Positions 6,593 through 56,741 of a stretch of DNA of 64,000 bases are shown one piece after another; position 1 is the stretch's first letter; every line of letters starts with the position of its first letter. This stretch comes from Candidatus Marinacidobacterium sp. (lineage in GTDB: Bacteria > Acidobacteriota > Vicinamibacteria > Marinacidobacterales > Marinacidobacteraceae): positions 64,001 to 128,000 of the forward strand of contig OZ242011.1 in the NCBI GenBank assembly GCA_965204755.1. The letters run 5' to 3'. Below the pieces are notes generated by a model. It was not told the origin of the DNA. It saw only the letters and a list, made by a program, of their open reading frames with translations, and made no database searches. The position numbers and the translations under genes are program-made.

Positions 6593-6720
6593 CGGCCCGC
6601 GACCCGCTCCGCCGGCGAACGGGGCGGAGGTATCGCGAAGACGAACGGCGCCGGGCCGCGCGCGGCGGTGCGAGAATTCTCGTCGGCCGGCGCCGCGCGC
6701 GCCCCGGAAGCATCCCCCGC

Positions 6721-8279: not shown

Positions 8280-8458
8280 CGACCCGCGAAGGGCGCCGGG
8301 CGTCGAGGGGACGCGAAGCCGGCCGTATCGCCGGCGCATGACCGACGCCGGTCCGCGCTCGGCGGTGCGAGAATTCCCGGCGGCCGGCGCCGCGACGCCC
8401 CTCCGGGTCGCCGGGTCGGCCCGCCGCGACCGAAAACAGCGCCGCACGCGTCCCCCGC

Positions 8459-19308: not shown

Positions 19309-20581
19309 ATGGCGAGCGAACCGTCCCGCTCCGGCCCGAGACCCCGCCCCCGAACCCGCGCGCCTTTCCCCGCTCCCCCCATGTTCCGCGGATTCCCCCG
19401 GACCCTCGCCTGGAACGGACTCTGGGCGGGAACGGCCGTCGCTCTCACGCTTCTCGGCGGCGAAGCGTATCTCCGGTTCTCGCGGCCGTTCATGGCCGAG
19501 GTCCGCCCGGAAGTGTTCCTTCCGGAAGTCGGCGCGCTCCTGGCGCCGGACACGGAAGTGCGCTTCACGAATCGTCTCGACTTCTGGACGGTCTCGCGCA
19601 CCAACAGTCTGGGGTTCCTGGACCGGGAACCGCCGAGTCCGGGCCGCGCGGCGGAGACCTGCCACATCGCCTTCGTCGGCGACTCCTTCGTGGAGGCGCC
19701 CCAGGTCCCGATCCCGGACAAGGCGGCGGCGCAACTCGAAGCCATGGCGCGGGAGGCCCTGCCCCGCCTGGACATCACCACCTCGGCGTTCGGTCGATCC
19801 GACACCGGGCAAGTGCGGCAGTTGCCGCTCTGGGACTGCTGCGCCCGGCGCTTCGCCCCCCGACTCCTCGTGCTCGTCTTCCACCCGAACGACCTCTGGG
19901 ACAACCATCCCGTCCTCCGGCGCGTCGTCCGGCCGCACGACCCGCGGTTCCCCGAGTTCCGGCTGACCGAGTCGCCGGACGGCGCGCTGTCCTTGTCGGC
20001 CCCCCCCCCCCCCCCCCCCCCCCCTACGGCGCGCCGATCGATCGGAATGGAGGACAACGCCGGGAGAGGCCGGCCCGAGGGGGAAACCCCGCTCCTGGTT
20101 CGCAGCCTGGGTCTCGGCGAAATGGCGCGCGATCGGGCGGCTCGGAAGACCCGACGATCTGCGGGAACTCATCGAGACCGATTTCCTCCGCCGTCCGCTT
20201 CCGGAAGGCGCCGGGCCCGGGATGCGCCGGCCGGACTTCGCCGAGGTCCTGGAATACACGGCGTTCGCCCTCCGCGCCTTCCGGGATCGAGCCGAGCGGG
20301 ACGGCGCCCGCCCGGTCGTGCTCGCGCACGAGTCCTCGCGGCGCCGGCGAGTGCTGGAACCCTTGCGGAGCATCGCGGGCCCCCTGGGCCTACCGGTGTT
20401 GGACATTGCGGAGACCCTCCTCCGGGATGGCGTCGATTTCAACGCGGTCCGTTTCCCTCACGAGGGCCACTGGAACTCCGCCGGCCATCGCTTCGCCGCC
20501 CGGACGGTGCTCGACTACCTCGAGGGGCATCCGGAAGTATGCGACCGGCCCCGCCCGCCTTCGCGCGGCGAAGGCCGCTGA
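19309..20581 (+). CDS. Membrane-anchored SGNH (AlgX/AlgJ-like) protein, frameshifted at C25
   Basis: TM anchor, GDSFVEA and HPNDLWDN in the frame of 19309. After poly-C 20000-20024 homology continues in the frame of ORF 20222..20581 (SWFAAWV, TAFAL, EGHWN). C24 restores the frame. Confidence 0.8.
20000..20024 (+). repeat. Poly-C tract (C25)
   Basis: Counted in sequence. Confidence 0.9.
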
Positions 20582-30473: not shown

Positions 30474-30475
30474 CT

Positions 30476-31795: not shown

Positions 31796-31807
31796 GCCCG
31801 GCGCCCG

Positions 31808-37631: not shown

Positions 37632-38497
37632 CACGAATGCTCCGAATACCCGCCGACAGCGAAGTCCTCGGCGTAGCGGCGGAGCAACGACTCGCGCGCC
37701 CGCCCGGTGAGGTCCTCCGCCGCTTCCCGGCGCGCCGCCGCGAGTTCCTCGGGGGCCGCCTGCCAGCCCGCCATGGTGTTCAGCAGCGGCAACCGCGGCG
37801 GGGCGATCCCCAGGCGGTCGGCGAGTTCGCCGAGGTCGCGTCCGAAGTCCTCGAACCGGCCGACGAAGTCCGGCAGGCGGTGGTCGTCCAACCGGATCTG
37901 CAGGTGCTGGGAGAGGTAGTGCCGGTCGGCCAGCGGGTCGGCGCCCGACGGGGTCGCCAGCCAGGCGCAGAAGTCCTCGAATCCGCTCGCCCGGCCCAGC
38001 CCGGAATGTTCCCGGAAGAGCCGGCGGCGTTTGTCCTCCTTCCTCACCGGCGACGCCAATTCGGAGAGCGGCGACCGGAAGCGGACCTCGCGGCCGGCCG
38101 CCGGGTCGAAGAAGGCCGGCTCGCGGCGGTCGCGGTACTTCGGGTGCTGCCGGGCGTAGAGGGCCGGGGAGCGGAACAACTCGCGGTGGAGCGAGAGCGC
38201 GCGGGTGAACGGGTGCCGGACGAAGGCGAAGGAGAAGTAGTCGCGCGCTTCGGGCCGGGCGGACAGGACTTCGGAGACGCTCGCGTCCCGGAAGATTTCC
38301 AGGTCGGGGGCGGCGTTCCGGAACGCCGCCATCAGGCTGCGCGTGGCCGCCTTCGGGACCAGGAGGCCGAGGAACCGGCCCCGGCGGGAGAGCAGTTTCT
38401 CGGCCCCGAAGTCCGCCGCGCCGCCGCGCGCCCGGAAGGCCCGCCGGGCGTCGCGGAGGGCGCCGCGCCCGAGGGCCCGGGCCGCGGCGCCCATCAC
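37628..38497 (-). CDS. PAPS-dependent carbohydrate sulfotransferase (Sulfotransfer_2-like)
   Basis: VPKAATRS (5'-PSB loop), FSFAFVRHPFTRALS (3'-PB), DRHYLSQ, DFVGRFE. Confidence 0.8.
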   Translation of the reverse strand: MMGAAARALGRGALRDARRAFRARGGAADFGAEKLLSRRGRFLGLLVPKAATRSLMAAFRNAAPDLEIFRDASVSEVLSARPEARDYFSFAFVRHPFTRALSLHRELFRSPALYARQHPKYRDRREPAFFDPAAGREVRFRSPLSELASPVRKEDKRRRLFREHSGLGRASGFEDFCAWLATPSGADPLADRHYLSQHLQIRLDDHRLPDFVGRFEDFGRDLGELADRLGIAPPRLPLLNTMAGWQAAPEELAAARREAAEDLTGRARESLLRRYAEDFAVGGYSEHSW

Positions 38498-39921
38498 GCC
38501 GGCGCCCCGCCGCAGATTTCGGGACGGTCGCGCAGGTGGTCGAGCAGCGCCTCGGCGGCGAAGCGGTGGCCGGCGGGGTTCCAGTGGATGTCGTTCGGGA
38601 AGTGGAGTTCCCCGATGCGGGCCGCGCCCCCGTCCCGGCGGACGAGCCGCTCATGGAGGTCCAGAACCGGAATGCCGCGTTCGGCGGCCAACTCTTCCAT
38701 GACGCGGAACGGCGCCTTCCAGGCGCCGAAGAGCGGCGGCGCGAGCAGGACCAACTCGGCGCCGTCGCGCTCCGCGCGCTCCCGGAACTCGTCCAGCGCG
38801 AACGCCGTGAGTTCCACCGCGTCCCGATACGGCGGCGGGAGCCTCGCCCCGCTCCACTCGGCGCTGTCGAGGGCCAGGGCCACCGCCCACGGCAGGTAGC
38901 CCGGCGGACGCCGCCACCCCTCGAGGAGGGCCCGGTACTCGGGGGTCTCCCGGTACTCGGGGATCGTCCGCAGGGGCGCCCCTTCGTCCGCCGGCCTGTC
39001 GTCCGCTTCCCTGTCGTCCGCCGGCCTGTCGTCCGCTTCTCCGACGCCGCGCCGAACTCCCAGCCGGCCCAGGGAGCCGTCCAGCGGGCGGATCACGCGG
39101 ACGGTGAGCCAGTCGAGGAGCCGGGACGCGTCCCGCGCCCACGCCCACGCCCGCCGGACCGGGGGCGGCGCCGCCGCGGCGAGCCCCGACCCGGCCGGCC
39201 TCCGGCGGGCGAGCGCCTCGGGGTGGGGCGGGCGCAGGCGGATCTCTCCCTCCTCGCTCCGGTAGGCGGAGGCGAACGGCATCCGCGCCGGATCGTACCC
39301 GCCCTGGATCGCCTGGAGGAACGCCGAGTTGTCGCCGAAATCGCTCCAATACACCACCAGCGCGAGCAGGGCCGGCCGGAGCGGGCGGGCGAAGCGGTCG
39401 TAGAACGGCAACTGGTTGACCTGGCCGGTGTCCCCCCACCCGAAGGCCGCGGTCCTCACCCGGAGACCGGGGAGTTCCCCGGCGGCGAGGCGTTCGAGGA
39501 CGACCTGGACCTTGTCCGGGATGGCGACCTCCCGCGCGTCCACATAGGAGTCCCCGATGAGGACGACCCGGCAGGTCCCGCCCGCCTCCTCCGGGTCGGG
39601 GGGCTCCCGGTCCACGAAGCCCAGGCGGTTCGCCCGCGAGACGGTCCAGAAGTCGAGACCGTTCGTCGCCCGCACTTCGGCGCCGGGTTCGGCCAGGAAC
39701 CCCGCCCCGGGGACGAAACGCAGCGGCGTCCGCCAGGAACCGAAGGGCGCCGAGAGGCGCAGGGCCCCCTCCGCCGCCAGTCCGACCACGAGCAGGAGCC
39801 CGGCGAGCGCCGCGGCGTTCCCGGCGGCGAGCCGGGCGAGCCGGCCCGGCCGGGCCAGCCGGACCGGCCGCGCCCTGCGGCCCCGCGCCCGCGGTCCGTC
39901 CCGGCGGAGGCGGCCCATCAC
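38494..39921 (-). CDS. Membrane-anchored SGNH protein
   Basis: GDSYVDA, SDFGDN, DIHWN. Confidence 0.8.
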   Translation of the reverse strand: MMGRLRRDGPRARGRRARPVRLARPGRLARLAAGNAAALAGLLLVVGLAAEGALRLSAPFGSWRTPLRFVPGAGFLAEPGAEVRATNGLDFWTVSRANRLGFVDREPPDPEEAGGTCRVVLIGDSYVDAREVAIPDKVQVVLERLAAGELPGLRVRTAAFGWGDTGQVNQLPFYDRFARPLRPALLALVVYWSDFGDNSAFLQAIQGGYDPARMPFASAYRSEEGEIRLRPPHPEALARRRPAGSGLAAAAPPPVRRAWAWARDASRLLDWLTVRVIRPLDGSLGRLGVRRGVGEADDRPADDREADDRPADEGAPLRTIPEYRETPEYRALLEGWRRPPGYLPWAVALALDSAEWSGARLPPPYRDAVELTAFALDEFRERAERDGAELVLLAPPLFGAWKAPFRVMEELAAERGIPVLDLHERLVRRDGGAARIGELHFPNDIHWNPAGHRFAAEALLDHLRDRPEICGGAPA

Positions 39922-41312
39922 CGATCAGCCGCGCCGCGCGCCGGCGGAGACCCCGGCGGAGTCTCCGCGCAGACCTCCGGATGCGCCGCCAGGTATTCGA
40001 GGACAGATTCGGCCGCCCACCGGTGCCCTTCCCGGTTCCAGTGGCCGTCGCGCCGGAAATGGGCGTCTTCGGGGCGGCCGCCTCGCCGCCGGATGAACTC
40101 GTACTGGTCGATCACCGGGATTCCGGAGTCGGCGGCGAGCCGCCGCAGCGCCTCCACGACTTCCGGCCCCGAGTCCGGGGTCGTCCGGTGGGTGACGAGG
40201 AGGACGAGCGCCGCGCCGTCCGACTCCGCGCGTTCGGCGAACGCGGAAAGGGCGAAAGCGGTGGCCTCGATCGCTTCCGAGATCGGCGGCGCCGCGCCCC
40301 CGCCCCGGAGGATCGCCCCGGCGGCGGCGGCGGCGAAGACCGCCGGGTCGGCGAGGCCGCCCGACCGGCCGCCCGACTGGCCGCCGCCCGCCTCCCCGGA
40401 ACCCCCGGTCGGGGCGGTCGGGCCGTTCGGGTCGTTCGAGGCTGTCGCGCGGGCTTCCCGGTTTCGGGCGACCCGGGCCGCCAGCAGGGTCGCCGCCCGC
40501 TCCCGGAGCAGGTCGAGGAGGTGGGACTTCCCTCGCGCGGCCTCCCAGGCCCCGCGCAGCGGACGCGCCCACGACGGCGGGAGCCCGAGGCCGCGCGCCC
40601 AGCGGAAGTCGGCCGCCTCCGGGTGGGGCGGACGCAGTTCCATCCGCCCGGCGGCGTCCCGCGCGACGGACAGGTAGGGCATCCGCTCCGGGTCGAACCC
40701 CCGCCGCCGCGCCCGGTGCTCCGTGGTGTTGTCCTCGAAGTCGTTCGAGTAGAAGACGAGGACCACGACCCTCGGGCGCAGCCGGCGGGCGAAGCGGTCG
40801 TAGAAGGCCAGTTGGTTCACCTGCCCGGTGTCCCCCCGGCCGAACGCCGAAGCCGCGACGCCGAGGGCCGGGAGTTCCCGGCGCGCCATTTCTTCCAGCC
40901 GGACCGGGAACTTGTCGGCGATCGGGACCTCGTTGGCTTCGACGAACGAGTCTCCGATCGCGACCACCCGGCAGCCTTCCGGGGCCCGGGCCGGCGGCTC
41001 CCGGTCGGGAAATCCCAGCGAGTTCGTCGTCGTCTCGGTCCAGAACTCCCGCCCGTTCGTCCAGCGCACGAGGGCATGCGGTTCCGCCAGGAACCCGACT
41101 CCGGGGACGAACCGGACAGGGAAGTGGCGCCCGATGAAGGGGCTCCGCGAGCGCAGCCAGACTTCGGCGGCGGCGCCCGCGAGGAGGCCCCCGCCCAGGA
41201 CCAGGGCGGCGTTCACCGCGGCCGCTCGGAGGAATCGCCGCCGTCCCGCCCCGGCCCCCTTCCCGACCGTCGGCCCGCCCCCCGGTCCGGTCGCCCGGTC
41301 TCCCGCTTCCAC
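39918..41312 (-). CDS. Membrane-anchored SGNH protein
   Basis: GDSFVEA, NDFEDN, DGHWN. Confidence 0.8.
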   Translation of the reverse strand: MEAGDRATGPGGGPTVGKGAGAGRRRFLRAAAVNAALVLGGGLLAGAAAEVWLRSRSPFIGRHFPVRFVPGVGFLAEPHALVRWTNGREFWTETTTNSLGFPDREPPARAPEGCRVVAIGDSFVEANEVPIADKFPVRLEEMARRELPALGVAASAFGRGDTGQVNQLAFYDRFARRLRPRVVVLVFYSNDFEDNTTEHRARRRGFDPERMPYLSVARDAAGRMELRPPHPEAADFRWARGLGLPPSWARPLRGAWEAARGKSHLLDLLRERAATLLAARVARNREARATASNDPNGPTAPTGGSGEAGGGQSGGRSGGLADPAVFAAAAAGAILRGGGAAPPISEAIEATAFALSAFAERAESDGAALVLLVTHRTTPDSGPEVVEALRRLAADSGIPVIDQYEFIRRRGGRPEDAHFRRDGHWNREGHRWAAESVLEYLAAHPEVCAETPPGSPPARGAADR

Positions 41313-41316
41313 CGGC

Positions 41317-42870
41317 TCAGGTGGCGGCGACGGCGCCGGCCGGAGGCGGCTCCCGGCGGCCGGGCGTTCCCCGGAGGACGGAATGGAGCAGCAGCGCCGC
41401 GGCCAGGACCTCGAACGGCCACATCGCCGCGGCGTACCTCATGGTGGCGAAGTTGAAGACGGCCACGGTCAGGAAGTAGCCGTGGACGAAGAACCCCGCG
41501 GTAGCCGCCAGGACGAGGGCGGGGTCGGGAGGCTTCCCGGAGAGCCGCCGCCGGCCGGCGAGGCCGAGCGCGGCGAGCGAGGCGGCGAAGGAGAACGCGG
41601 CGGCGGCCCGGTTCGCCGCGATCACCCAGGGCGGGAACCGCCGGTTCTCCGAAATCGGCGCCCCGAGGCGGCTTCCCGGAGCGGGGGAGTCGGCGGCGAA
41701 CGCCCTCCCGCGGTCCTCCAGGGCCCGGGCGAACGAGGCGGTGTGGAGGGCGTGGCGGCTGAACAGCGCGGCGTAGTGCGTCGCGGCGTTCGCCGCCCAC
41801 TCGCCCGGCGCGGCGAAGAGCGCGCGGCGGCCGAGACCGCCGAGGAACTCCGCGGAGGTCGCGCCCCGCTCGGCGGCCAGGGCGGCGACCCGCTCCTCGA
41901 GTCCGAACGCCGGGTCGTGTTGGGCCGCGGTTTCCGCCCGCCGCAACAGGACGGAGCGCAGTTGCGGATCCCCGGCGCCGGCGACCAGCGCCCGCAGGGG
42001 GGCCGCCCGCCGCCGCGCTTCCGAGAACAGTTCGTCCACCGGCGGATCCCCGGAGGGAGGGGGTTCCGACGGGAGGACCAGGGCCTTGGCGAACAGGTGG
42101 GCGCCCGCGCTCCGGGGCCGGTGGTCGAGGCCCGGGTGCGCCCGGCGCCAAGCCTCCCCCTCCAGGACGAAGACCGCGACGATCGGCAGCGTTGCGGCGG
42201 CGGCGAGTCGCAGGCGTCCGCCGGCCGGCGGACGGCCCCCGCCGGGCCCCCGGAGGCCCCCGGCGGCCTTCCGCCCGGAAACGAGCCAGAGGAGCGCCGG
42301 CCATACGAGCAGGAGCGCGGCGCCCGCCGGCCGGACCGAGACGGCCAGCGCGGTGCAGGCGGCGCCGGCGGCGAATCGGGCGGCGGTCGGACGCGCCGCG
42401 GCGAGGGCGGCGCAACCCAGCGCGACGACCAGCAGCGGGACGAAGAGCGCCTCCGACAGGAGGTAGGCGTCGAACCGCGACGCCGCGCTCGGGGCCAGCA
42501 CCGCGATCGCTGCCACCGGCGCGAGGAGGGGAGCGCCCGAAGCCCGGGCGGCGGCCCCGGCGAGGAACAGCGCCGACGCCGCCGTGATCGCCGCCTGGAT
42601 CGGGGGAACGGCTTCCGGAGTCCCGAAGAGCCCGACGACCAGGGCGAGGAAGGCCGGGTATCCGGCCCAGGTGCGCGGATCGGCATCCAAGCGGAGATAG
42701 GAGGCGCTGTCAGGCGTCGCCATACTCGGCCCGAACGGGGCCCAGGCCCCGGCGCCGACCGGGTTCCACCAGGAAAGGGCGGCGTAGCCGAGGGCGAGGA
42801 CGGCGGCGCCGGCGATCCAGGGAAACGCGCGCCGGCGCGCCCCGGCGGCCGGCGGCGGCGGGCGGGACAT
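41317..42870 (-). CDS. Polytopic membrane protein, probable GT-C glycosyltransferase (no two-Cys domain)
   Basis: TPDSASY, GYPAFL, LLSEALF, VRP, MRY; paralog of 52607-54127. Confidence 0.7.
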   Translation of the reverse strand: MSRPPPPAAGARRRAFPWIAGAAVLALGYAALSWWNPVGAGAWAPFGPSMATPDSASYLRLDADPRTWAGYPAFLALVVGLFGTPEAVPPIQAAITAASALFLAGAAARASGAPLLAPVAAIAVLAPSAASRFDAYLLSEALFVPLLVVALGCAALAAARPTAARFAAGAACTALAVSVRPAGAALLLVWPALLWLVSGRKAAGGLRGPGGGRPPAGGRLRLAAAATLPIVAVFVLEGEAWRRAHPGLDHRPRSAGAHLFAKALVLPSEPPPSGDPPVDELFSEARRRAAPLRALVAGAGDPQLRSVLLRRAETAAQHDPAFGLEERVAALAAERGATSAEFLGGLGRRALFAAPGEWAANAATHYAALFSRHALHTASFARALEDRGRAFAADSPAPGSRLGAPISENRRFPPWVIAANRAAAAFSFAASLAALGLAGRRRLSGKPPDPALVLAATAGFFVHGYFLTVAVFNFATMRYAAAMWPFEVLAAALLLHSVLRGTPGRREPPPAGAVAAT

Positions 42871-47865: not shown

Positions 47866-48762
47866 TCAGTCCGCCGCCTCGTCGAAGTAGCGGCCGAGCA
47901 GGAGTTCGCCCGACGGCGAATAGAAGGTGGTCAGGCCGCGGGTCGGACAGGGGGTCAACTCCCCGACCCGCACTTCGGAGTCGGTCGCGTAGAGGTCCAC
48001 CCGTATGAAATCGAACGGTGCGGCCAGCCGTTCGGCGAGGGCGAGCATCAGCGGGAGTCGGCGCGGGCGCTCCGCCGGGAAGGTCCCGGGAGACGGCCTC
48101 GTTACCGGCAGCGGATTCCACTCGGGGTCGTGGACCGACTTCCGGTAGGCGTCGGTGAATCGCCCGAGAGCGGCCACCACGAACCGGACCCTCCCGCCGA
48201 AGCAGAAGAACTTGTACTCCGGCGCCGTCGTCCGCCCGTCCTCGGTGAAGAACTCCTCCACGATGATCTGCCGGCGAACGCCCAGGTAGTTCTGTTCCCG
48301 CCCGGAGCGGTAGAAGTCCCGGCGGAGCCAGCCGAGCAGGGTTTCGGGGGAGGGCGCCTCCGCCGGTTCGCGGCAGTACGCGACCTCGTGGGTCCCGTGG
48401 GTCGGCTTGATGATGCAGGGAAACCGCTCCGGGCGGAACGAAGCCGCTTCTTCCGGCGTCCGCAGGATGCGGTAGGTGGCGAGGTTGTACCGCTCGCCCA
48501 CCGTGGCCGCGATGTAGGTCTTCACCCGTTCCTTGCAGGTGACCGAGCGCCGCAGCGGGTCGAGGAGCCGACCGCTCACGCGGAGCGCGAAGACCCGGTC
48601 GTTGAACCGCCGCGGGCGATATTCCGGGAACCTGCCCCGCTTCGCCAGGAACTCCAGGACGGCGAACCAGCGGTCGCCCGCGGGGGTTCGGGGGAGGACC
48701 CGCTCGACCCGGCGCAGCGCGCACCTCAGGCCCCGCTCCCGAAAGGAAGGGCCGCCGCTCAC
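47866..48762 (-). CDS. TupA-like ATP-grasp amidoligase
   Basis: K..VK.YI, IIKPTHG, IIVEEF, EYKFFCFGG, FDFIRVDLY, GELT. Confidence 0.85.
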   Translation of the reverse strand: MSGGPSFRERGLRCALRRVERVLPRTPAGDRWFAVLEFLAKRGRFPEYRPRRFNDRVFALRVSGRLLDPLRRSVTCKERVKTYIAATVGERYNLATYRILRTPEEAASFRPERFPCIIKPTHGTHEVAYCREPAEAPSPETLLGWLRRDFYRSGREQNYLGVRRQIIVEEFFTEDGRTTAPEYKFFCFGGRVRFVVAALGRFTDAYRKSVHDPEWNPLPVTRPSPGTFPAERPRRLPLMLALAERLAAPFDFIRVDLYATDSEVRVGELTPCPTRGLTTFYSPSGELLLGRYFDEAAD

Positions 48763-48769
48763 TTCCGCT

Positions 48770-49754
48770 TCACGCCCGGCCGAAAGGCGCCCGCCCCCTC
48801 CGCTCCGGCGCCGGGTGTTCGGACCGGTCCGCCGGCTCGTCGAAGTACCGGCCGAGGAGGAACTGGGCGGACGGCGGATGGACCGGCGAGCAGCCCCGGT
48901 TCGGACAGTTCGTCAACTCGCCGACCCGAACCTCGGTGTCCGTGGCGTAGAGGTCCACCCGCAGGAAGTCGAACGGGGCGGCCAGCCGCTCGGCGAGTTC
49001 CAGCAGCAACCGGCGTTGCGCCGGGGGAGCGGGAGAGCGACCGCTGTCCGTCCGCGTCGGGGGGGGGGGGGGGGGGGGGGTAGCGAATGCCCGCCGGCAG
49101 CCGGTTCCAGGACGGGCAGTCGCGAAGCGTTCTGAGGTAGGCATCGGTCCCTCGTCCGGTCTCGACCTGGACGAAGCGGGCTCTCCCGCCGAAGCAATAG
49201 ACCTTGTATTCGGGCGCCGGGACCTTCCCGTCCGCGCTGAAGAACTCCTCGACGATGATCTGCCGGCGCAGGCCGCGGTAGTTCCCTTCCCGCCCGTTTC
49301 GGTAGAAGTCGTCGGCGAGCCAGCCGAGAAGCGTCTCCGGAGGCGGCGCGTCCGCCGGTTCGCGGCAGATGCGGAACCGGCCGGCGGCGTGGGTCGGCTT
49401 GACGACGCAGGGAAACCGCTCCGGGCGAAACGAAGAGGCTTCTTCCGGCGTCCGCAGGATCCGGTAGGTCGCGAGGTTGAATCGCTCGCCCACCGCGGCG
49501 GCGATGTAGGTCTTCACCGACTCCTTGCAGGTGACGAAGCGGCGGAGCGGGTCGTCGAGGCGCCCGCCGGCCCGGAGCGAGAACAGGTGGTCGCTGTACC
49601 GCTTCGGGCGGCGCTCCGGCAGGCGGCCGTGCGCGGCCAGGAACTCCAGGACGGCGAACCAGCGGTCGCCCGCGGGGGTTCGGGGGAGGACCTGCTCGAC
49701 CCGGCGCAGCGCGTACCTCCGGCCCCGCTCCCGAAGGGAGGGTTCGCGGCTCAC
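48770..49754 (-). CDS. TupA-like ATP-grasp amidoligase copy 2, frameshifted at C22
   Basis: GTG 49754. N-terminal part is in the frame of 48759..51116; FDFLRVDLY..GELT is in the frame of 48770..49144. The switch is at 49059-49080. Confidence 0.8.
49059..49080 (-). repeat. Poly-C tract (C22 on coding strand)
   Basis: Counted in sequence. Confidence 0.9.
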
Positions 49755-51172
49755 TTCCGTTTCGCGCCGGTCGGGGGGGCCGGTTGGGGGCCGGTTGGGG
49801 GCCGGTTGGGGGGCCGGCCGCCTCCTCCGCCGAAGCCGCCGGCCCCCCCGCAGACCTCGGGCTCGGCCTCGAGTCGGGCGAGCACCGCCTCCGCCGCCCA
49901 CCGGTGCCCGGCCCGGCTCCAGTGGTGGTCGCGCGGCGAGAGGGACGCCTCCCGCGGGTCGCCCCCGGCGCGGACGATCGCTTGGTACTGGTCCAGGACC
50001 GGGATGCCCCGGGCCTCGGCCAGCGACCGGAGGGCCGCCACGGCTTCCCGGCCGGCGACTTCCGTCGTCCGGTGGGTGGCGAGCAGCCACAGCCGGGCGC
50101 CGTCCCGGTCGGCGCGGGAGCGGAACTCGTCGAGCGCGAAACCGGTCATCGCGACCGCCTCCCGATAGGCGGGAGGCAGGCGGGCCTCCCATCCCCCCTC
50201 GCCGCCGTCGGCGGCGAAGGCCCGCCCGATCTCCCGGGTCACGGAGTCGTACAGGGCCTCGCCGCGCCCCGGCCGCCAGTCCCCGAAGGGCGGAGGGCCG
50301 GCCGCCGCCCCGATCTCCTCCAACCGGTCGGAACGGTGGCGCCCGAGACGGGCGAGGTACAGCGTCCGCGCCCGGCCATACACCCAATCGGCGGCGTAGG
50401 AGACCTCGCGCAGGCGAAGGGCAAGGGCCCGGAGAAGCCTCGAAGCGGATTCCGGGACGCCGAGGCCGGCCGCCCACTGCCCCGCCGCCGCGTCGGGGTG
50501 CGGCGGACGCAGCCGGATCCTCCCGTCCCCGCCCCTCACTGCGGTCGCGAACGGCAGGCGCTCCGGGTCGAAGCCCTCGCGGAGGGCGTACAGCATCGCG
50601 TGGTTGTCCGGGAAGTCGTTCCGGTGGAAGACGAGGATCACGAGTTTCGGGGAGAGGCGGCGCGCGTAGCGGTCGTAGAAGGGCAGTTGGTGGACCTGCG
50701 CGGTGCCGCCCCGACCGAAGGCGGAGACCGTGAGGTCCAGGGCCGGAAAGGCGCGCGCACCGAGGCCCTCGAGGATCGCCGGGAACTTGTACTCCACGGC
50801 GACTTCCTTGGCCTCGACGAAGGAGTCCCCGATCACCGTCAGGTGGCAGCCGGCCGCCGCCCGCTCCGGCGAGGGAGGCTCGCGGTCCAGGAAGCCCCAG
50901 CGGTTCGTCCGGGACACCGTCCAGTAGTCCCGCCCGTTCGTCCATCGCACTTCGCGGTCGGGCGGCAGCAGGAGCCCCGCTTCCGGGACGAACCGGGCCG
51001 GATAGACGCTGTGCAGGAAGGGCCGGGTGGAGCGGAGCCGGATCTCGGCGATTCCTCCGACCAGGAGGAGCAGGCCGGCGAGGACGGCGGCGTTCACCCC
51101 GACCACCCGGCGCCATCCCCGCCCGGCGCCCGCCCGCGAACCCTCGACCGGGCCCGCCGTCGAACCCGTCAT
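49751..51172 (-). CDS. Membrane-anchored SGNH protein
   Basis: GDSFVEA, NDFPDN, DHHWS. Confidence 0.8.
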   Translation of the reverse strand: MTGSTAGPVEGSRAGAGRGWRRVVGVNAAVLAGLLLLVGGIAEIRLRSTRPFLHSVYPARFVPEAGLLLPPDREVRWTNGRDYWTVSRTNRWGFLDREPPSPERAAAGCHLTVIGDSFVEAKEVAVEYKFPAILEGLGARAFPALDLTVSAFGRGGTAQVHQLPFYDRYARRLSPKLVILVFHRNDFPDNHAMLYALREGFDPERLPFATAVRGGDGRIRLRPPHPDAAAGQWAAGLGVPESASRLLRALALRLREVSYAADWVYGRARTLYLARLGRHRSDRLEEIGAAAGPPPFGDWRPGRGEALYDSVTREIGRAFAADGGEGGWEARLPPAYREAVAMTGFALDEFRSRADRDGARLWLLATHRTTEVAGREAVAALRSLAEARGIPVLDQYQAIVRAGGDPREASLSPRDHHWSRAGHRWAAEAVLARLEAEPEVCGGAGGFGGGGGRPPNRPPTGPQPAPPTGAKRK

Positions 51173-51215
51173 CGCGCGGTCCGGAGCACTCGGGGGACGG
51201 CTCTCGAAGGTCGGC

Positions 51216-52610
51216 TCAGGGGTACGGGCCGCCGGGGCCCGGAGCGGCGCCGCCCCCTTCGCCGGGGCCGGCCTCCCCCCCGCAGACCTCGGGGCCGGCC
51301 GACATCCGGGCGAACACCGCCTCCGCCGCCCACCGGTGCCCGGCCCGGTTCCAGTGGAGGTCGCGCCGCGAGATGGACGCCTCCCGCGGATCGCCCCCGG
51401 CGCGGACGATCGCCTCGTGCTGGTCGATGACCGGGATACCCCGGGCCCCGGCCAACGACCGGACGGCCGCCACCGCTTCCCGGCCGGCGACCGCCGTCGT
51501 CCGGTGGGTGACGAGCAGCCACACCCGGGCGCCGTCCCGGTCCGCGCGGGAGCGGAACTCGTCGAGCGCGAAGCCGGTCAGCGCGACCGCCTCCCGATAG
51601 GCCGGCGGCAGGCGGGCCTCCCAGCCCTCCCGGCCTTCCCGGCCTTCCCGGCCCTCCCGGCCCTCCCGGCCGCTGCCGCCGGCGGCGAAGGCGCGCCCGA
51701 TCTCCTTCGCCGCCCAGCGGTACAGCGGCTCGCCGCGCCCCGGCCGCCAGTCCCCGAACGGCCAGGGGCCGGCCCCCGAATCCATCTCCTCCAAGCCGTC
51801 GGAGCGGCGGCGCTCGAGACGGGCATGGAACCCCGACCGCGCCCGGCCATAGACCCAGTCGGCGGCGTAGGAGACTTCGCGCAGGCGGAGGGCGAGGGCC
51901 CGAAGAGCCCGGGAAGCGGATACGGAGACGCCGAGGCCGGCCGCCCACCGGCTCGCCGCCGCGTCCGGATGCGGCGGGCGCAAGCGGATCGTCCCGTCCC
52001 CCTCCCTCGCCGCTGTCGCGTACGGCAGGCGCTCCGGGTCGTATCTCTCGCCGAGGGCGTACAGCATCGGCGCGTTGTCCGCGAAGTCGTTCAGGTGGAA
52101 GACCAGGACCACGAGTTTCGGCGACAGGCGCCGCGCGTAACGGTCGTAGAAGGCCAGTTGGTGGACTTGCCCGGTCCCGCCGCGACCGAAGGCGGAGACC
52201 GTGATCCCCCGGTCCGGAAAGGCCCGCGACGCGAGGCCTTCGAGGAGCGCCGGGAACTTGTCCTCCATGGCGACTTCCTTGGCTTCAACGAAGGAGTCCC
52301 CGATCACCGTCAGGTGGCAGCCCGCCGCCGCCCGCTCCGGGGAAGGAGGCTCCCGGTCCAGGAAGCCCCACGAGTTCGTCCGGGACACCGTCCAGTAGTC
52401 CTCCCCGTTCGTCCATCGCACTTCGCTGTCGGGCGGCGCCAGGAAGCCGACTTCCGGAACGAATTCCGCCGGATAGACGCTGTGCAGGAAGGGCCGGGTC
52501 GAGCGGAGCCGGACCTCGGCGGCGAGGGCGGCCAGGACGAGCAGTCCGCCGAGGACGGCGGCGTTCGCCCCGATCACCCGGAGCGTCCGCCGCCCGGCGC
52601 CGCGGGTCAC
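51216..52610 (-). CDS. Membrane-anchored SGNH protein, close tandem paralog of 49751-51172
   Basis: GTGA-coupled start 52610 within ORF 51216..55574; GDSFVEA, NDFADN, DLHWN; (GRE)x5 insertion. Confidence 0.8.
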   Translation of the reverse strand: MTRGAGRRTLRVIGANAAVLGGLLVLAALAAEVRLRSTRPFLHSVYPAEFVPEVGFLAPPDSEVRWTNGEDYWTVSRTNSWGFLDREPPSPERAAAGCHLTVIGDSFVEAKEVAMEDKFPALLEGLASRAFPDRGITVSAFGRGGTGQVHQLAFYDRYARRLSPKLVVLVFHLNDFADNAPMLYALGERYDPERLPYATAAREGDGTIRLRPPHPDAAASRWAAGLGVSVSASRALRALALRLREVSYAADWVYGRARSGFHARLERRRSDGLEEMDSGAGPWPFGDWRPGRGEPLYRWAAKEIGRAFAAGGSGREGREGREGREGREGWEARLPPAYREAVALTGFALDEFRSRADRDGARVWLLVTHRTTAVAGREAVAAVRSLAGARGIPVIDQHEAIVRAGGDPREASISRRDLHWNRAGHRWAAEAVFARMSAGPEVCGGEAGPGEGGGAAPGPGGPYP

Positions 52611-54127
52611 CGCGCGTCCGCCGCGGGAACCCGGCGCGGCCGCCGTCCGAACAGGGCGTACGCGAGGAGCGCCCAGAGGCAGACGACTTCGAGCGGCCAC
52701 ATCGCGGCGCTGTATCGCAACTTCCCGAAGTTCAGCGCCGCGATGAGCGCGAAGTAACCGTGCGCCGAGACCGAGGCCGCGGCCGCCAGGGCGAGCAGCG
52801 GCCCCGGGCGCCCGTCCCGCCCGAGCCGCCGAAAGGCGGCGAGTCCGACGACGAGCAGCGAAGCGGCGAAGACCGCGAACACCGCGGCGCGGTGGGCCGA
52901 CCGGAGGGTTCGCGACCGGCCGCGGCTCTCCGGCGGCGGCGCCGCGGCGCGGGCCTCCCGGAACAGCGGCGTCGGCGCCGCGGTCCCGGCGTAGGCCCGG
53001 AAGGTCCGGGCGAACTCCGGCGAATGGATCGAGGTGTGGGTCCAGAGGGTGACCAGGTGGCGCAGCGCGTTCGCCGCCCACTCGCCGGGCGCGGCGAGCA
53101 GGGCGGCGCGGCCGATCTCCCCGGCGATCCGCTCCGGCGGAAGGTCCCGCCGGGACTCCGCGCCGGCGGCCAACCGCTCGAGCCGCGGGCGGAAACGCCG
53201 CCGGTAGGTCGGGTGCTGCAGCGCGGTCTCCGCCCGGCCGAGCAGCAGGGCGCGGAGGGCCGGGTCCGGCGCGCGGTGGACGAACTCGCGGAGCGGGGCG
53301 GTGTAGCGGCGCTCCTCCGCGAAGAAGCGGTCCACCGCCGGGTCGCCGAACGAGTCCGGCGCCGACGGGATCAGCAGCGCCTTGGCGAAGAGATGGCGGT
53401 GGACGATGTTGGGGCGCTTCCCGATCTCCCCGCGCGCCGCGGAATGGGCGCGGCTCTCCCAGGCGATCCCCGCGGCGATCGAAACCGCGCCGAGGGCGAG
53501 CAGGAACCCCCGCCGCCTCGGGCCGGCGGTTCCGAGGTCGCGCCAGAGGAGCCAGAAGACGAGCGGCCAGGCGAGCAGGAGCAGCGCCCCGGAGGGCCGG
53601 ACCGCCACCGCCAGGCCGGAGCAGAGGGCCGCGGCGGCGAGCGGCGCCGCCCGGGGGCGCGCGGCGAAGAGCGCCAGCGCGCCGACCGATCCCATGACGA
53701 GCGGGACGAAGAGGGCCTCGGAGAGGATGTAGGCGTGGAACCGGGGGACGGCGGCGGCGGCGAGGAGGCCGGGCAGCAGGAGGAGCGCGAACCGGGGGGC
53801 GCCGGCGGCGCGGCCCAGCGCGAAACCGAGGAAGGCGAGCGCCGCCGCCGTCAGGACGAGTTGGGCGCGGGTGACGCCTTCGAGACCGCCGAGCCGGGGA
53901 AGCGCCAGGTCCAGGAAGACCGGGTACCCGGCGGAGCGCCCGGCGTAGAAGTCCAGGTAGGAGCGGCTCTCCTCGAGCACCAGCGGCGTCTCCCCGAACG
54001 GGGAGAACGCGCCGCCGCCGATCGGGTTCGACCAGAACAGAGCGGTGTAGATCGCTCCGGCGAGCGGCCAGCACCAGGGCGCGAGACGCCCCGACGGCCC
54101 GCGGGGAGAGCGGGGCGCTTCTTCCAC
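52607..54127 (-). CDS. Polytopic membrane protein, probable GT-C glycosyltransferase
   Basis: EESRSY, RSAGYPVFL, ILSEALF, HLFAKAL, LRY; paralog of 41317-42870. Confidence 0.7.
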   Translation of the reverse strand: MEEAPRSPRGPSGRLAPWCWPLAGAIYTALFWSNPIGGGAFSPFGETPLVLEESRSYLDFYAGRSAGYPVFLDLALPRLGGLEGVTRAQLVLTAAALAFLGFALGRAAGAPRFALLLLPGLLAAAAVPRFHAYILSEALFVPLVMGSVGALALFAARPRAAPLAAAALCSGLAVAVRPSGALLLLAWPLVFWLLWRDLGTAGPRRRGFLLALGAVSIAAGIAWESRAHSAARGEIGKRPNIVHRHLFAKALLIPSAPDSFGDPAVDRFFAEERRYTAPLREFVHRAPDPALRALLLGRAETALQHPTYRRRFRPRLERLAAGAESRRDLPPERIAGEIGRAALLAAPGEWAANALRHLVTLWTHTSIHSPEFARTFRAYAGTAAPTPLFREARAAAPPPESRGRSRTLRSAHRAAVFAVFAASLLVVGLAAFRRLGRDGRPGPLLALAAAASVSAHGYFALIAALNFGKLRYSAAMWPLEVVCLWALLAYALFGRRPRRVPAADAR

Positions 54128-54133
54128 GGGCCG

Positions 54134-56047
54134 CTAGTCGGGCGCGAACTGCAGCCGGTGGGTTTCGGCGCGGAGCCCCGCCGGCTGCTCCCGCTTCCAC
54201 AGGAAGAAACCGCCGACGGCGAGAGCGTCGAGTTCCGTTCCCATGAAACAGCGGAAGGCGTCTTCCGGGGTGCACACGATCGGCTCGCCGCGCACATTGA
54301 AACTGGTGTTCACGAGCACCGGACAGCCGGTTTTCCCGTAGAACGATTCGAGCAGCGCGTGGAAGAGCGGGTTCGTTTCGCGATGGACGGTCTGCACCCG
54401 GGCGGAGCCGTCCACATGGGTGACGGCCGGGATTTCGGACCGCTTCTCCGCGAGGAGTTCGAATCCGGTTTCCGCTCCCCGCGCGGCGCGGGCGGGCGGT
54501 TCCACCGCGAGGCGCCGCTTCCGATGCACCTCGGCGACGAGCAGCATGTACGGGCTCTCCCGGTCGAGTTCGAACCAGTCGGCGGCCTCCTCGGCGAGGA
54601 CGCTCGGCGCGAAAGGACGAAACGACTCCCGGTACTTGATCTTCAGGTTCAGGTTCCGCTGCATGTCCGGGGATCTCGGGTCGGCCAGGATGGAGCGGTT
54701 GCCGAGGGCGCGCGGTCCGAACTCCATCCGCCCCTGGAACCAGCCGAGCGCCCGGCCGGCGGCCAGCGCCCCGGCGGCGGTTTCGACCAGGCCGTCTTCG
54801 TCGAGGACCTCGTACCGCGCCCCCCGGGCGTCGAGCGCCGAGCGGATCGCCGCCTCGTCGAATTCCGGCCCCAGGAAGGCGCCTTCCATGGCGTCCCGAT
54901 CTCCGGAAACGACGGACGGAGCGGGAGCGGCGCCGGCCCGGCGTCCGCCCTCCCGACGGCGGGTCGAAGCGCGGACGCGGGGGACGCCGAGCAGCCGGTG
55001 GCTCGCCGCCAGCGCGGCGCCGAGCGCCCCTCCGGCGTCTCCGGCGGCGGGCTGCACCCAGATCCCCTCGAACCGGCTGTCGCGCGCCACCCGGCCGTTC
55101 GCCACGCAGTTGAGCGCCACCCCGCCGGCGAGGCACAGGTTGCGAAGCCCGGTCTCCTCCCGGAGCGACCGGGTGAGCCGGAGCACCGCTTCCTCGACCA
55201 CCGCCTGCACCGAAGCCGCGAGGTCCCGGTGCCGCCGGGTCAGCGGCTCGCCGGGCCGGCGCGGCGGGCCGCCGAACAACTCGTCGAACTTCCGGTTGGT
55301 CATGGTGAGGCCGGTGCAGTAGTCGAAGTAGTCGAGGTCGAGGCGAAAGGTCCCGTCCGGCTTCAGGTCCAGGACCCGGTCGAGGATCAGCGGGGCATAG
55401 CGGGGCTCGCCGTACGGCGCGAGCCCCATCACCTTGTATTCCCCGGAGTTCACCTTGAACCCGGTATGGAAGGTGAAGGCGGAATAGAGGAGGCCGAGCG
55501 AATGCGGAAAGTGGATTTCCTTTACCACCTCCAGGTCGCCGCCATACCCGATCGCCGCGGAAGTGGTGGCCCATTCCCCGACGCCGTCCATGGTGAGCAC
55601 GACCGCGTCTTCGAACGGCGACGGGTAGAAGGCGCTGGCCGCGTGCGACTGGTGGTGTTCGGCGAACAGCAGGCGCTCTTCCCAGGGGGCGTCGGGAGCG
55701 ATCTTCCGGAGTCGGCGGAGCAACAGGTTCTTCTGGAACAGTTTCTCCGTGATCCAGATCGGCGCGGCCAGCCGGAACGAACGAAACCCCTTGGGCGCGA
55801 ACGCGAGCCCGGTCTCCAGCAGCCGCTCGAACTTGAGGAACGGCTTGTCGTAGAAGACCACCCGGTCCACGGCTTCGGGCGCGATCCCGGCGCGTTCGAG
55901 ACAGAACGAGACCGCCCGCTCCGGATAGTCGGCGTCGTGCTTTCGCCGGGTGAACCGCTCCTCCTGGGCGGCGGCGACGATCCGCCCGTCCTCGACCAGG
56001 GCGGCGGCGCTGTCGTGGTAGAACGCCGACAGGCCGAGGACGCGCAA
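54134..56047 (-). CDS. O-carbamoyltransferase, NodU/CmcH/TobZ family (SxtI-like)
   Basis: FYHDSAAA, HHQSHAASAF, DGVGE, GEYKVMGLAPYG, GGVALN, EFGPRALGNRS, RESFRPFAP, HVDGSARVQ, NTSFN. Confidence 0.95.
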   Translation of the reverse strand: MRVLGLSAFYHDSAAALVEDGRIVAAAQEERFTRRKHDADYPERAVSFCLERAGIAPEAVDRVVFYDKPFLKFERLLETGLAFAPKGFRSFRLAAPIWITEKLFQKNLLLRRLRKIAPDAPWEERLLFAEHHQSHAASAFYPSPFEDAVVLTMDGVGEWATTSAAIGYGGDLEVVKEIHFPHSLGLLYSAFTFHTGFKVNSGEYKVMGLAPYGEPRYAPLILDRVLDLKPDGTFRLDLDYFDYCTGLTMTNRKFDELFGGPPRRPGEPLTRRHRDLAASVQAVVEEAVLRLTRSLREETGLRNLCLAGGVALNCVANGRVARDSRFEGIWVQPAAGDAGGALGAALAASHRLLGVPRVRASTRRREGGRRAGAAPAPSVVSGDRDAMEGAFLGPEFDEAAIRSALDARGARYEVLDEDGLVETAAGALAAGRALGWFQGRMEFGPRALGNRSILADPRSPDMQRNLNLKIKYRESFRPFAPSVLAEEAADWFELDRESPYMLLVAEVHRKRRLAVEPPARAARGAETGFELLAEKRSEIPAVTHVDGSARVQTVHRETNPLFHALLESFYGKTGCPVLVNTSFNVRGEPIVCTPEDAFRCFMGTELDALAVGGFFLWKREQPAGLRAETHRLQFAPD

Positions 56048-56051
56048 GGAC

Positions 56052-56201
56052 TCAGAAGATCGTGTAGATCATGGGCGCGACGGCGGTGGTCTGGGCGAGC
56101 GCGATCAACCCGGCCAGCATCAGCAGGGTCACGATGACCGGAAACAGCCAGTACTTCTTGCGCACGCGCAGGAAAGCCCACAGTTCGCGGAGGAAAGACA
56201 T
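56052..56201 (-). CDS. DUF5989 / SxtK-like 49-aa single-TM peptide
   Basis: Below the ORF-track cutoff. Manual translation gives MSFLRELWAFLRVRKKYWLFPVIVTLLMLAGLIALAQTTAVAPMIYTIF, with an AAAAGGGGA RBS upstream. Confidence 0.9.
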   Translation of the reverse strand: MSFLRELWAFLRVRKKYWLFPVIVTLLMLAGLIALAQTTAVAPMIYTIF

Positions 56202-56279
56202 GCGGTGTCCCCTTTTCGGTGTCGGTGTCGCGATCGGTCGTCGGTTCCGCGGGAGTCCCGGGAGGTCGGTTCCCCCGGT

Positions 56280-56741
56280 TCAGAACTGACGCGTCAGGGA
56301 ATCCGGGGCCGGACCGGGCGGCTCCCGGAGGATCCAGTAGGTCTTCGCGGAGGGCGCCCGCGAAAGGCGCAACGGGTCCTTGCCCAAGGCCCGGCCGAGC
56401 AGCGCGATCGGGGTGACCACCCCGAAATAGATCCCGCCGAGGATCACCGTCTGGGCCACCGGCTGGACGAAGCGGCGCAACAGCGACCCGAGGCGCTGCC
56501 AGAGGAAGTGGAGCGGCGCGAGCAGCCCGGGGGCGGCGAGCGAGAGGAGGAGGAAACCGGCGGAGACGGCGAACGCCCAGGCGCGGAAGGGCCGCCCCCC
56601 GAGCATCGGCAGGGCGCCGAGCGCGGAGAAGGCGACGACCATGACCAGCCCGAAGGCGCGGTCGGAACTCGGCGCCGGCGCGGTCGCCCGGCCCGCCCGC
56701 TCGTGGGTCTGGCGCTCGTGCGTTTCGATGCTTCTCGGCAT
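56280..56741 (-). CDS. SxtJ-family membrane protein
   Basis: SDRAFG, LAPL..W, YFGVVTPI, GKDPLRL, TYW, terminal RQF; ATG 56741. Confidence 0.85.
   Translation of the reverse strand: MPRSIETHERQTHERAGRATAPAPSSDRAFGLVMVVAFSALGALPMLGGRPFRAWAFAVSAGFLLLSLAAPGLLAPLHFLWQRLGSLLRRFVQPVAQTVILGGIYFGVVTPIALLGRALGKDPLRLSRAPSAKTYWILREPPGPAPDSLTRQF

Follow-up and report, generated by a model that had tools for sequence, protein, structure and literature searches.

Why should a soluble O-carbamoyltransferase be encoded together with two small membrane proteins and with membrane-anchored proteins of the SGNH family? This question is raised by a six-gene, operon-like block on the minus strand (49751-56741) of a 64,000-nucleotide stretch of the genome of Candidatus Marinacidobacterium sp. 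(Acidobacteriota; assembly GCA_965204755.1, contig OZ242011.1, positions 64,001 to 128,000), which we refer to as the window. Based on a Pfam search and gene calls over the 64-kb window, the block encodes an SxtJ-family membrane protein, a microprotein of the family DUF5989, a NodU/CmcH-type O-carbamoyltransferase (CT), a protein with multiple transmembrane (TM) segments and two SGNH-family proteins. A first-pass annotation, made from the DNA sequence only, had recognised this gene order and these families, which the Pfam matches, all on the minus strand, bear out. It had also proposed that the block relays carbamoyl groups across the membrane by means of the microprotein. The answer that we favour, and to which we give an even chance of being right in full, is that the operon codes for membrane-bound machinery that carbamoylates an envelope glycan and in which a tyrosine in the tail of the microprotein would carry the carbamoyl group from the CT to outward-facing SGNH transferases. 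The observation made in the first-pass annotation is confirmed, and its interpretation is partly supported.

The tail of the DUF5989 peptide

The microprotein encoded in the window reads MSFLRELWAFLRVRKKYWLFPVIVTLLMLAGLIALAQTTAVAPMIYTIF. The basic patch (RVRKK), the single hydrophobic helix and the residues MIYTIF before the stop codon, all of which had been pointed out before, are confirmed in the sequence; the overall architecture is that of an amphipathic, basic N-terminus, one TM helix and the tail APMIYTIF-stop. The match to DUF5989 (Pfam PF19451) has a score of 82.5 bits, the cut-off being 27. The window has a G+C content of about 74%, and reading frames were picked by third-position GC, which is of the coding type in the open reading frame (ORF) of the peptide. 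Across the entire genome, only two ORFs have the relaxed ending [FMLIVWY]xYxx[FWYLM]. Because the ORF of the peptide is the only one in the genome with the true motif, and the only one of coding type with a shuttle-like end, the tail is not a chance feature.

All 31 peptide loci returned from Acidobacteriota end in AP[FM][IV]Y[TS][LIV]F-stop, and 28 of these peptides, when aligned (alignment A1), show no variation at W8, K15, K16, W18, L19, P21, L32, A42, P43, Y46 and F49. A search with one genome per species found at least 554 relatives, and the best 80 loci were used for the analysis of synteny and tails. These 80 come from Alpha-, Beta- and Gammaproteobacteria (many of them Pelagibacteraceae), Desulfobacterota, Nitrospirota, Gemmatimonadota, Cyanobacteriota, Planctomycetota, Omnitrophota, Patescibacteria and others. 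They contain 85 profile matches in 83 distinct ORFs, every one of which ends in [AL]P[FM][ILV]Y[TA]xF-stop. Similarly, 119 of the 120 database proteins inspected, the best of at least 8000 clusters, end in APFIY[TS]xF. The consensus tail of the family is PFIYT[LI]F-stop, and the methionine at position -6 of the window copy is a rare lineage variant, present in one of the 83 peptides elsewhere. Judged from these top-scoring samples, the tail appears to be the most conserved part of a very large family; the tyrosine at position -4 and the phenylalanine at position -1, whose invariance the first-pass proposal required, do not vary in any sample examined.

The peptides have on average 5.0 lysines and arginines before the TM helix and 0.14 after it. 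Since these residues are concentrated before the helix, the positive-inside rule predicts that the tail lies outside the cytoplasm, where the earlier proposal had placed it.

Two further observations concern the form in which the peptide occurs. Firstly, only two loci on viral contigs encode a relative of the membrane peptide, and this form is not typically viral. Secondly, apparent longer, 'fused' forms gave 683 matches, and 13 sequences were fetched from the best 120 of these. In five of the 13, in which the peptide is joined to SxtJ, the CT or an SGNH protein (e.g. P0130, P0150, P0193 and P0227), a lone glutamine or lysine is found exactly at the position of the upstream stop codon, and these five are probably products of stop-codon read-through by gene callers and not real fusions. 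The remaining eight have no glutamine or lysine at the junction.

Resemblance to known acyl shuttles

Tails of this kind have been described for acyl shuttles. According to passages of the literature on DltX and its relatives (PMC12148441), DltX carries D-alanine on an invariant tyrosine near its extracellular C-terminus, within a six-residue 'acyl shuttle' motif, FXYXXF, and membrane-bound O-acyltransferases (MBOATs) of the PatA type have FXYXXF at their own C-terminus, after a peripheral helix and the last TM helix. The same passages state that the acyl-tyrosine donates its group to the catalytic serine of an SGNH partner, that NgPatA ends in FIYANF, and that AT3-SGNH proteins such as OatA pass an acyl-tyrosine intermediate to the SGNH serine (PMC12148441). 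The tail of the DUF5989 family conforms to this motif at its extreme C-terminus in all three sequence samples (31/31, 83/83 and 119/120 sequences).

The MBOATs of this phylum provide a second comparison. The longest ORF ends in F[ILV]Y[FG]xF, mostly PFIYFQF or PFIYFIF, in 15 of 20 fetched MBOAT regions; of the remaining five, two extend beyond the DNA that was fetched and three have different ends. The context of the tails is also alike, for example with ...RRIRIAAVRMR-TM-SQGSSAKFIYFDF in an MBOAT and ...RVRKK-TM-SQGSAVAPFIYTLF in a peptide. When the peptide was aligned with MBOAT C-termini by hhalign, the two matched end-to-end over 12 columns (E 1e-4, probability 58%), which should be read as a match at the level of the motif and is no proof of common descent. 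The likeness to DltX and MBOAT tails that had been noticed at first is therefore found both in the published motif and in the MBOATs of the phylum itself. As far as can be judged from sequence comparison, the microprotein is built like DltX and like the final helices of AlgI/PatA-type MBOATs, with a basic peripheral helix, a TM helix and a free C-terminal F-x-Y-x-x-F.

The system nevertheless differs from each of the known ones. Like DltX with DltB and DltD, it combines a single-TM microprotein of about 45-50 residues, an invariant tyrosine in a C-terminal F-x-Y-x-x-F and a membrane-anchored SGNH partner. Unlike DltX, however, the peptide falls outside the Pfam family PF12459: three peptides gave no match to it at E up to 10, and neither did the genome under study, whereas the control genomes of B. 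subtilis and L. lactis do match. Moreover, the DUF5989 system has no MBOAT and no carrier protein; its donor would be a soluble, ATP-dependent CT, and its membrane partner the small SxtJ, which lacks a conserved histidine. With PatA/PatB and AlgI/AlgJ it shares MBOAT-like tails (PFIYFQF and PFIYFIF are nearly identical to PFIYTLF of the peptide, and likewise follow a basic stretch and a TM helix) and an SGNH subfamily that also adjoins such MBOATs, but here the shuttle helix is a gene of its own that travels with the CT instead of an MBOAT body, and the cargo would be a carbamoyl and not an acetyl group. In the case of AT3-SGNH proteins such as OatA, the common logic would be an acyl-tyrosine that is handed to an SGNH serine; unlike that of the peptide, however, the AT3 tyrosine sits within the AT3 domain, and the single AT3 gene of our genome is 575 kb away from the locus.

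To our knowledge, all acyl-tyrosine shuttles described to date carry acyl groups that an MBOAT or AT3 membrane enzyme has loaded. The literature that we searched, subscription journals being outside the search, contains no mention of 'DUF5989' and no combination of 'acyl shuttle' with 'carbamoyl'. Hence, we found no published account of a DUF5989/CT shuttle, and a prior description in those journals is possible.

CT, SxtJ and DUF5989 form an almost obligatory triad

The CT has no TM segment and no signal peptide in its sequence, and it is the only full copy in the genome. Because it lacks a membrane segment and needs ATP and carbamoyl phosphate, it is taken to be cytoplasmic. Its score with the NCBIfam equivalog NodU (151.6 bits) is far below the cut-off of 1000, so that it is not NodU itself. 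It has the two domains, Carbam_trans_N and Carbam_trans_C, of TobZ, NodU and CmcH, which make carbamoyl-AMP and then pass the carbamoyl group to a hydroxyl. These enzymes act alone on their final acceptor, whereas the CT branch studied here nearly always comes with SxtJ and the peptide. Thus, a CT gene is located within 3 kb of the peptide in 75 of the 80 loci and an sxtJ-type gene within 1 kb in 68, the exceptions being mostly contig ends or cases in which an SGNH gene is inserted between them; both SxtJ-peptide-CT and CT-SxtJ-peptide orders are seen. In a sample of 401 genomes of the phylum, 160 of which contain DUF5989, Carbam_trans_N was detected in 209 at a threshold of E 1e-30 or better. 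All 160 peptide-positive genomes have it, with a median best E of 1e-97, as do 49 of the 241 peptide-negative ones (median 1e-54), of which only one scores at the high level of the former. CT, SxtJ and DUF5989 therefore constitute an almost obligatory triad.

The SxtJ-family protein matches Pfam PF19588 with 41.2 bits (cut-off 24.4) over profile positions 4-99 of 99. In alignment A3 (57 sequences), the family shows about three hydrophobic helices and a tail that is basic and conserved, SYWIxR..PPGP..SMxxQF-stop; the window copy ends in ...SLTRQF. The CTs, too, have ends that are alike, ...F[EA][LP]D. Judging from the alignments, the conserved ends of SxtJ and the CT may be docking motifs, and SxtJ looks like a scaffold and not like a catalyst. 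The first-pass suggestion that SxtJ takes the place of the MBOAT as membrane conduit has received no direct support. Structure prediction had little to add: a predicted complex of SxtJ, peptide and SGNH protein scored 0.00 in both of two runs made without controls, which is evidence neither way, and an AlphaFold2 (AF2) model of P0130, in which SxtJ and the peptide are read as one chain (alignment A5), was confident for the SxtJ part, but had a predicted template modelling score (pTM) of only 0.53 and a predicted local distance difference test (pLDDT) below 50 for the tail, so that it gives no information on the packing of the peptide.

The tightness of the triad fits another explanation, the main rival of the relay, which we consider possible but distinctly less probable. 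SxtJ and the peptide might anchor the CT to the cytoplasmic face of the membrane, and perhaps activate it there, so that the CT would directly carbamoylate a lipid-linked sugar or a nascent glycan; the invariant tail would then be a protein-contact motif, and the exported glycan would be the substrate of the SGNH proteins in a later, separate step. In favour of this, the CT accompanies the peptide far more tightly (75/80 loci, 160/160 genomes) than an adjacent SGNH gene does (37/80 loci), direct action on the acceptor is known from characterised CT relatives, and SxtJ, which lacks conserved residues of catalytic type, has a conserved basic tail that could well bind a cytoplasmic partner. Such a dock would, however, leave three observations unexplained: conservation in the peptide is highest in an uncharged, predicted non-cytoplasmic tail that ends exactly in the shuttle motif; the SGNH subfamily described below is nearly confined to peptide-positive genomes; and there are arrays of SxtJ, peptide and SGNH genes with the CT 22 kb off.

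An SGNH subfamily is tied to the triad

By clustering the neighbours of the peptide genes, we found a subfamily of proteins of about 350-420 residues with an N-terminal anchor and GDSL Pfam matches, from which an iterated profile (alignment A2) was made. A gene of this subfamily lies within 10 kb in 43 of the 80 loci. In 37, no more than 500 bp separate the triad from the closest copy, as against some 1% expected by chance in a genome that has about a dozen copies per 4 Mb. At L079 and L101, the SGNH gene is even inserted between SxtJ and the CT. In Trichodesmium erythraeum IMS101 (L066, 9572-20149), six SGNH paralogs lie in tandem after SxtJ and the peptide, and the only CT gene of the genome is located 22 kb upstream on the same strand.

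Within the sample of 401 genomes, 183 are positive for the SGNH profile at E 1e-15 or better and 157 contain an MBOAT. The subfamily is present in 154 of the 160 peptide-positive genomes and in 29 of the 241 peptide-negative ones; four of the six peptide-positive genomes without it are less than 90% complete. The association holds where no MBOAT is present (68 of 73 peptide-positive genomes), whereas an MBOAT in the absence of the peptide is accompanied by the subfamily in 12 of 70 genomes, and 17 of the 171 genomes with neither peptide nor MBOAT have it. When the unpublished genomes G152, G024 and G049 are left out, the first four of these proportions become 153/159, 28/239, 67/72 and 11/68, and that of the CT 159/159. 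What is informative in these data is how rarely the subfamily occurs in genomes without the peptide. One membrane-anchored SGNH subfamily is thus tied to the triad both by adjacency and by genome-wide co-occurrence, as the first-pass proposal had anticipated.

Of the two partners that known shuttles have, the membrane-anchored SGNH protein is found at 37/80 loci and in 154/160 genomes, an association and not a contact, and the MBOAT is missing from our genome and from 73 of the 160 peptide-positive genomes. In the genome, a single contig of 3.98 Mb with a marker-based completeness of 89%, no MBOAT was found, which extends the absence reported earlier for the window. The label 'MBOAT-free' cannot be kept for the family, however, because 87 of the 160 peptide-positive genomes also carry an MBOAT. 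Against this zero stand one DUF5989 gene, one full CT gene and 13 copies of the SGNH subfamily in our genome: seven in the window, five at 251-332 kb and one at 1.22 Mb according to the subfamily profile. The count of seven paralogs in the window agrees with the first-pass annotation, six being intact and one being split over two frames.

The SGNH subfamily also adjoins MBOATs ending in FIYFDF or FIYFQF (L046, L095 and L106). Two of these loci are relevant to a further possibility, that the tyrosine shuttle carries another acyl group, e.g. acetyl, supplied by an unrecognised membrane enzyme, and that the CT is a mere neighbour in glycan-tailoring islands. At L046, a divergent DUF5989-like peptide (~9115-9350, minus strand, E 4e-7) that ends in LPFLYALF heads an operon (4483-9096, minus strand) of three SGNH genes and an MBOAT ending in FIYFDF, and this operon lies divergent from the SxtJ-peptide-CT genes. 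At L095 (9992-13484, genome G403), a DUF5989 peptide is directly followed by an SGNH gene, and alongside are a second SGNH gene and an MBOAT that is frameshifted and has the tail FIYFDF; there is no SxtJ nearby, and no CT was found across the whole 6.5-Mb assembly, the completeness of which is not given. Both loci would be as expected for a different acyl group. Nevertheless, we regard this possibility as improbable, given that all 160 peptide-positive genomes have a CT, that 75 of the 80 loci have one within 3 kb, and that our own genome has no MBOAT and just one, distant AT3 gene; for G403, the missing CT has to be read with its unstated completeness in mind.

Transferase or hydrolase?

In an alignment of 60 sequences (A2), G115 and S117 of block I and D186 of block III are conserved in at least 90%, and H417 of block V is invariant. 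Together with fold matches at Z 12-19.7, these blocks place the proteins in the SGNH superfamily. In the AF2 model of the 473-residue SGNH protein 2, which is confident (pLDDT 86, pTM 0.85), the SGNH core is accompanied by a long N-terminal helix, a small beta domain and a large helical insertion. Foldseek returned generic SGNH matches at E ~1e-5. A structural search of 48,161 representative chains placed CgnD (PDB 8A2N) first, with Z 19.7 and a root-mean-square deviation of 4.0 over 242 residues, the next entry having a Z of 14.9; AlgJ, AlgX and DltD are not among the 50 best matches listed, which does not exclude them. The ALGX Pfam matches around the DxH motif are weak and local (E 2e-5 to 5e-6, mostly below cut-off). 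As for their location, the net charge around the anchors favours N-in, domain-out in 40 of 60 proteins and the reverse in 10, with 10 tied; none of 62 SGNH proteins has a true lipobox, and there is no conserved cysteine column or pair among them. Going by the model, the fold does not tell a transferase from a hydrolase, and the first-pass claim that the SGNH proteins transfer carbamoyl groups and are not hydrolases is not supported.

A second role has to be weighed, that of editing hydrolases (decarbamoylases or deacetylases), the co-occurrence with the triad being that of a write-and-erase pair. The closest solved structure, CgnD, is reported to be a (slow) hydrolase, and the remaining best fold matches are esterases. 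In addition, SxtL, encoded by a GDSL gene beside sxtK, is annotated with 'decarbamoylation' in the passages available from two sources (PMC2885083 and PMC2679770). Still, 13 paralogs per writer in our genome, and up to six in tandem elsewhere, are a better fit for many acceptor specificities than for erasure, the same subfamily partners MBOATs, the SGNH partners of which are described as transferases (passages of PMC12148441), and the decarbamoylase role of SxtL is, in the passages mentioned, a proposal and not a result. We therefore consider it unlikely that the SGNH proteins are editing enzymes.

CgnD also brings the peptide itself into question. Passages of PMC10070186 describe CgnD as a slow hydrolase of leader peptides and the crocagin cluster as containing a carbamoyltransferase as well. 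The cluster further resembles our locus in having a peptide with a C-terminal, tyrosine-containing core; CgnD differs from SGNH protein 2, with which it shares 15% sequence identity, in being soluble and without a membrane anchor. By analogy with the modified and carbamoylated I-Y-W core of crocagin, the DUF5989 peptide might be a precursor or substrate that is itself the end product. That would account for CgnD, from a cluster with a carbamoyltransferase, being the best structural match of the SGNH model, but the whole peptide, TM helix included, is conserved across phyla without a variable core, it occurs in streamlined SAR11-type genomes, and it is always accompanied by a membrane protein. 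We think this highly improbable. A reading of the peptide as the precursor of a ribosomal peptide that is modified after translation (RiPP) was rejected because conservation spans the whole peptide.

The saxitoxin genes

The triad and the SGNH genes resemble a set of genes in saxitoxin clusters, for which passages of the literature list an O-carbamoyltransferase, SxtJ, a 54-codon ORF and a GDSL protein of 426 codons (PMC2679770). In the passages available, sxtJ and sxtK are called unknown and are thought to work with sxtI, and sxtL (GDSL) is a proposed decarbamoylase gene (PMC2885083, PMC2679770, bioRxiv 10.64898/2026.06.11.731795). The gene content of sxtI-sxtJ-sxtK-sxtL is that of our system, in an order seen at loci L075, L088 and L104; this resemblance is drawn from those literature passages. 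The Pfam family SxtJ is named after sxtJ, and a DUF5989 protein of Dolichospermum ends in APFIYTIF. Unlike in the envelope-glycan proposal, the acceptor in saxitoxin synthesis is a small alkaloid and not a glycan.

A proposed carbamoyl relay and what weighs against it

Starting from what is observed, i.e. the identity and invariance of the motif, the triad and the SGNH association, we infer every chemical step of the relay as follows. The cytoplasmic CT would make carbamoyl-AMP from carbamoyl phosphate and ATP, and the carbamoyl group would go onto Tyr46 of the tail as an aryl carbamate. From the tail, the group would pass to an SGNH protein at the outer face of the membrane, where the catalytic serine would accept it, and this protein in turn would transfer it to a sugar hydroxyl of a glycan. 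Aryl carbamates are known to carbamoylate serine hydrolases. SxtJ would serve as the scaffold, its TM helices holding the peptide and its conserved basic C-terminal tail holding the CT. One donor module could in this way feed many acceptor-specific SGNH transferases (13 in our genome), the genes of which sit among GT-C-like, sulfotransferase and glycosyltransferase genes.

Several points weigh against this relay. The weakest step is loading, since the tyrosine is predicted to be on the far side of the membrane from the CT, which has no membrane segment of its own. A tyrosine outside would be unable to enter a cytoplasmic active site, unless the extended tail of 10-13 residues reaches back along SxtJ or the topology differs from the prediction. 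The membrane part of SxtJ has no conserved histidine, serine, cysteine, aspartate or glutamate in the 57 sequences, and offers no conserved residue to do the work of the MBOAT histidine. Furthermore, TobZ, NodU and CmcH carbamoylate their final acceptor directly. On the side of the SGNH proteins, 37 of the 80 loci have no gene of the subfamily within 10 kb, the side of the membrane on which the domain lies is deduced from a moderate charge bias, the best fold match is described as a hydrolase, and the fold comes no nearer to known transferases (PatB, Z 13.2) than to esterases (Z 14-15). The co-occurrence is partly built in, because profile A2 was made from neighbours of the peptide, and Fisher P values overstate the SGNH-peptide association, because the genomes are kin. 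Finally, the tail in the window has a methionine, not a phenylalanine, at the first position of the motif, and all peptide samples consist of best-scoring matches, one of the two patterns used to search for relatives having included the tail itself.

The genes of the window

The features of the block and the other SGNH copies are collected in Table 1. The intergenic gaps within the block are 78, 4, 6, -4 and 43 nucleotides; at the fourth, the stop of the gene for the 506-residue protein overlaps the GTG start of the gene for SGNH protein 1 (GTGA). SxtJ, the DUF5989 peptide and SGNH protein 1 have no NCBIfam name. The place of the fourth gene in the order is as first annotated, and its product has multiple TM segments. 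The label 'GT-C-like' that it was given has no counterpart in Pfam or NCBIfam, which supply no family name; the protein is possibly GT-C-like according to a language-model lead, its nearest ESM-Atlas clusters being named RgtA/B/C/D-like or having PMT/PMT_2 on a minority of their members.

Table 1. Genes of the six-gene block and further SGNH copies in the window (E-values from Pfam or from the hidden Markov model, HMM, of the SGNH subfamily)
Feature	Position	Strand	Matches
SxtJ-family membrane protein, 153 residues	56280..56741	-	Pfam PF19588 E 3e-10
DUF5989 microprotein, 49 residues	56052..56201	-	Pfam PF19451 E 2.2e-23, 1-49/49
NodU/CmcH-type O-carbamoyltransferase (CT), 637 residues	54134..56047	-	Carbam_trans_N E 1.6e-102, Carbam_trans_C E 3.2e-74
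Multi-TM protein of no named family, 506 residues	52607..54127	-	no Pfam, no NCBIfam match
SGNH-family protein 1, 464 residues, N-terminal membrane anchor	51216..52610	-	Lipase_GDSL_2 E 8e-10, ALGX E 4e-5, subfamily HMM E 2.7e-64
SGNH-family protein 2, 473 residues, N-terminal membrane anchor	49751..51172	-	weak Lipase_GDSL_2 and ALGX Pfam matches; GDS 115-117, D186, H417
Two tandem SGNH paralogs, same subfamily	38494-39924 and 39918-41438	-	subfamily HMM E 1.8e-47, 2.4e-59; ALGX E 4.8e-6
Two tandem SGNH paralogs	29181-30602 and 30476-31807	-	subfamily HMM E 8.7e-38, 2.6e-41; Pfam matches
Seventh SGNH copy, split across two frames	19429..20581	+	partial HMM matches, HMM positions 19-186 and 225-351

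SGNH protein 1 contains a repeat insertion, GREGREGREGREGREG (GREGREGREG), which is not present in its neighbour, 79% identical to it. The split SGNH copy, which sits between two large membrane-protein genes, is either a pseudogene or the result of a frameshift, possibly in the assembly.

The remainder of the window is an envelope-glycan island, with genes for six PMT_2/GT87-like membrane proteins, five arylsulfotransferase-like and two sulfotransferase-like genes, a GT2 gene, a weak GT4-like gene and TupA-like ATP-grasp genes. The arylsulfotransferase-like pairs 3209-4744/5045-6589 and 7065-8276/8803-10020 (plus strand) have near-identical N-termini and look like recent tandem duplications. 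One TupA-like ATP-grasp gene (47866-48762, minus strand; PF14305 E 1.9e-25) is intact; upstream of it lies a close paralog, the N- and C-terminal halves of which are in different frames (~48770-49700).

Implications of a possible tyrosine-carbamate shuttle

Beyond this operon, DUF5989 (SxtK) may be the carrier of a widespread, MBOAT-independent tyrosine-carbamate shuttle, in which a soluble CT seated on SxtJ would load the tyrosine and a dedicated subfamily of membrane-anchored SGNH proteins would be the true O-carbamoyltransferases of envelope glycans. We put the likelihood of this broader statement a little short of even. It would hold for bacteria of many phyla, among them SAR11-type marine bacteria, Nitrospira, cyanobacteria and about 40% of Acidobacteriota, and it would reassign SxtJ, SxtK and SxtL of saxitoxin synthesis, with SxtL being a transferase rather than a decarbamoylase. 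If true, it would bring both a new donor chemistry and a new loading route, by an ATP-dependent CT via a small, non-catalytic membrane protein, and it would provide a function for two families of unknown function that are found in more than 8000 protein clusters. It would also give a testable answer to a question that has been open since 2008, namely why the branch of CTs that contains SxtI always carries two tiny membrane-protein genes. Lastly, it predicts that the surface glycans of abundant environmental bacteria would be O-carbamoylated.

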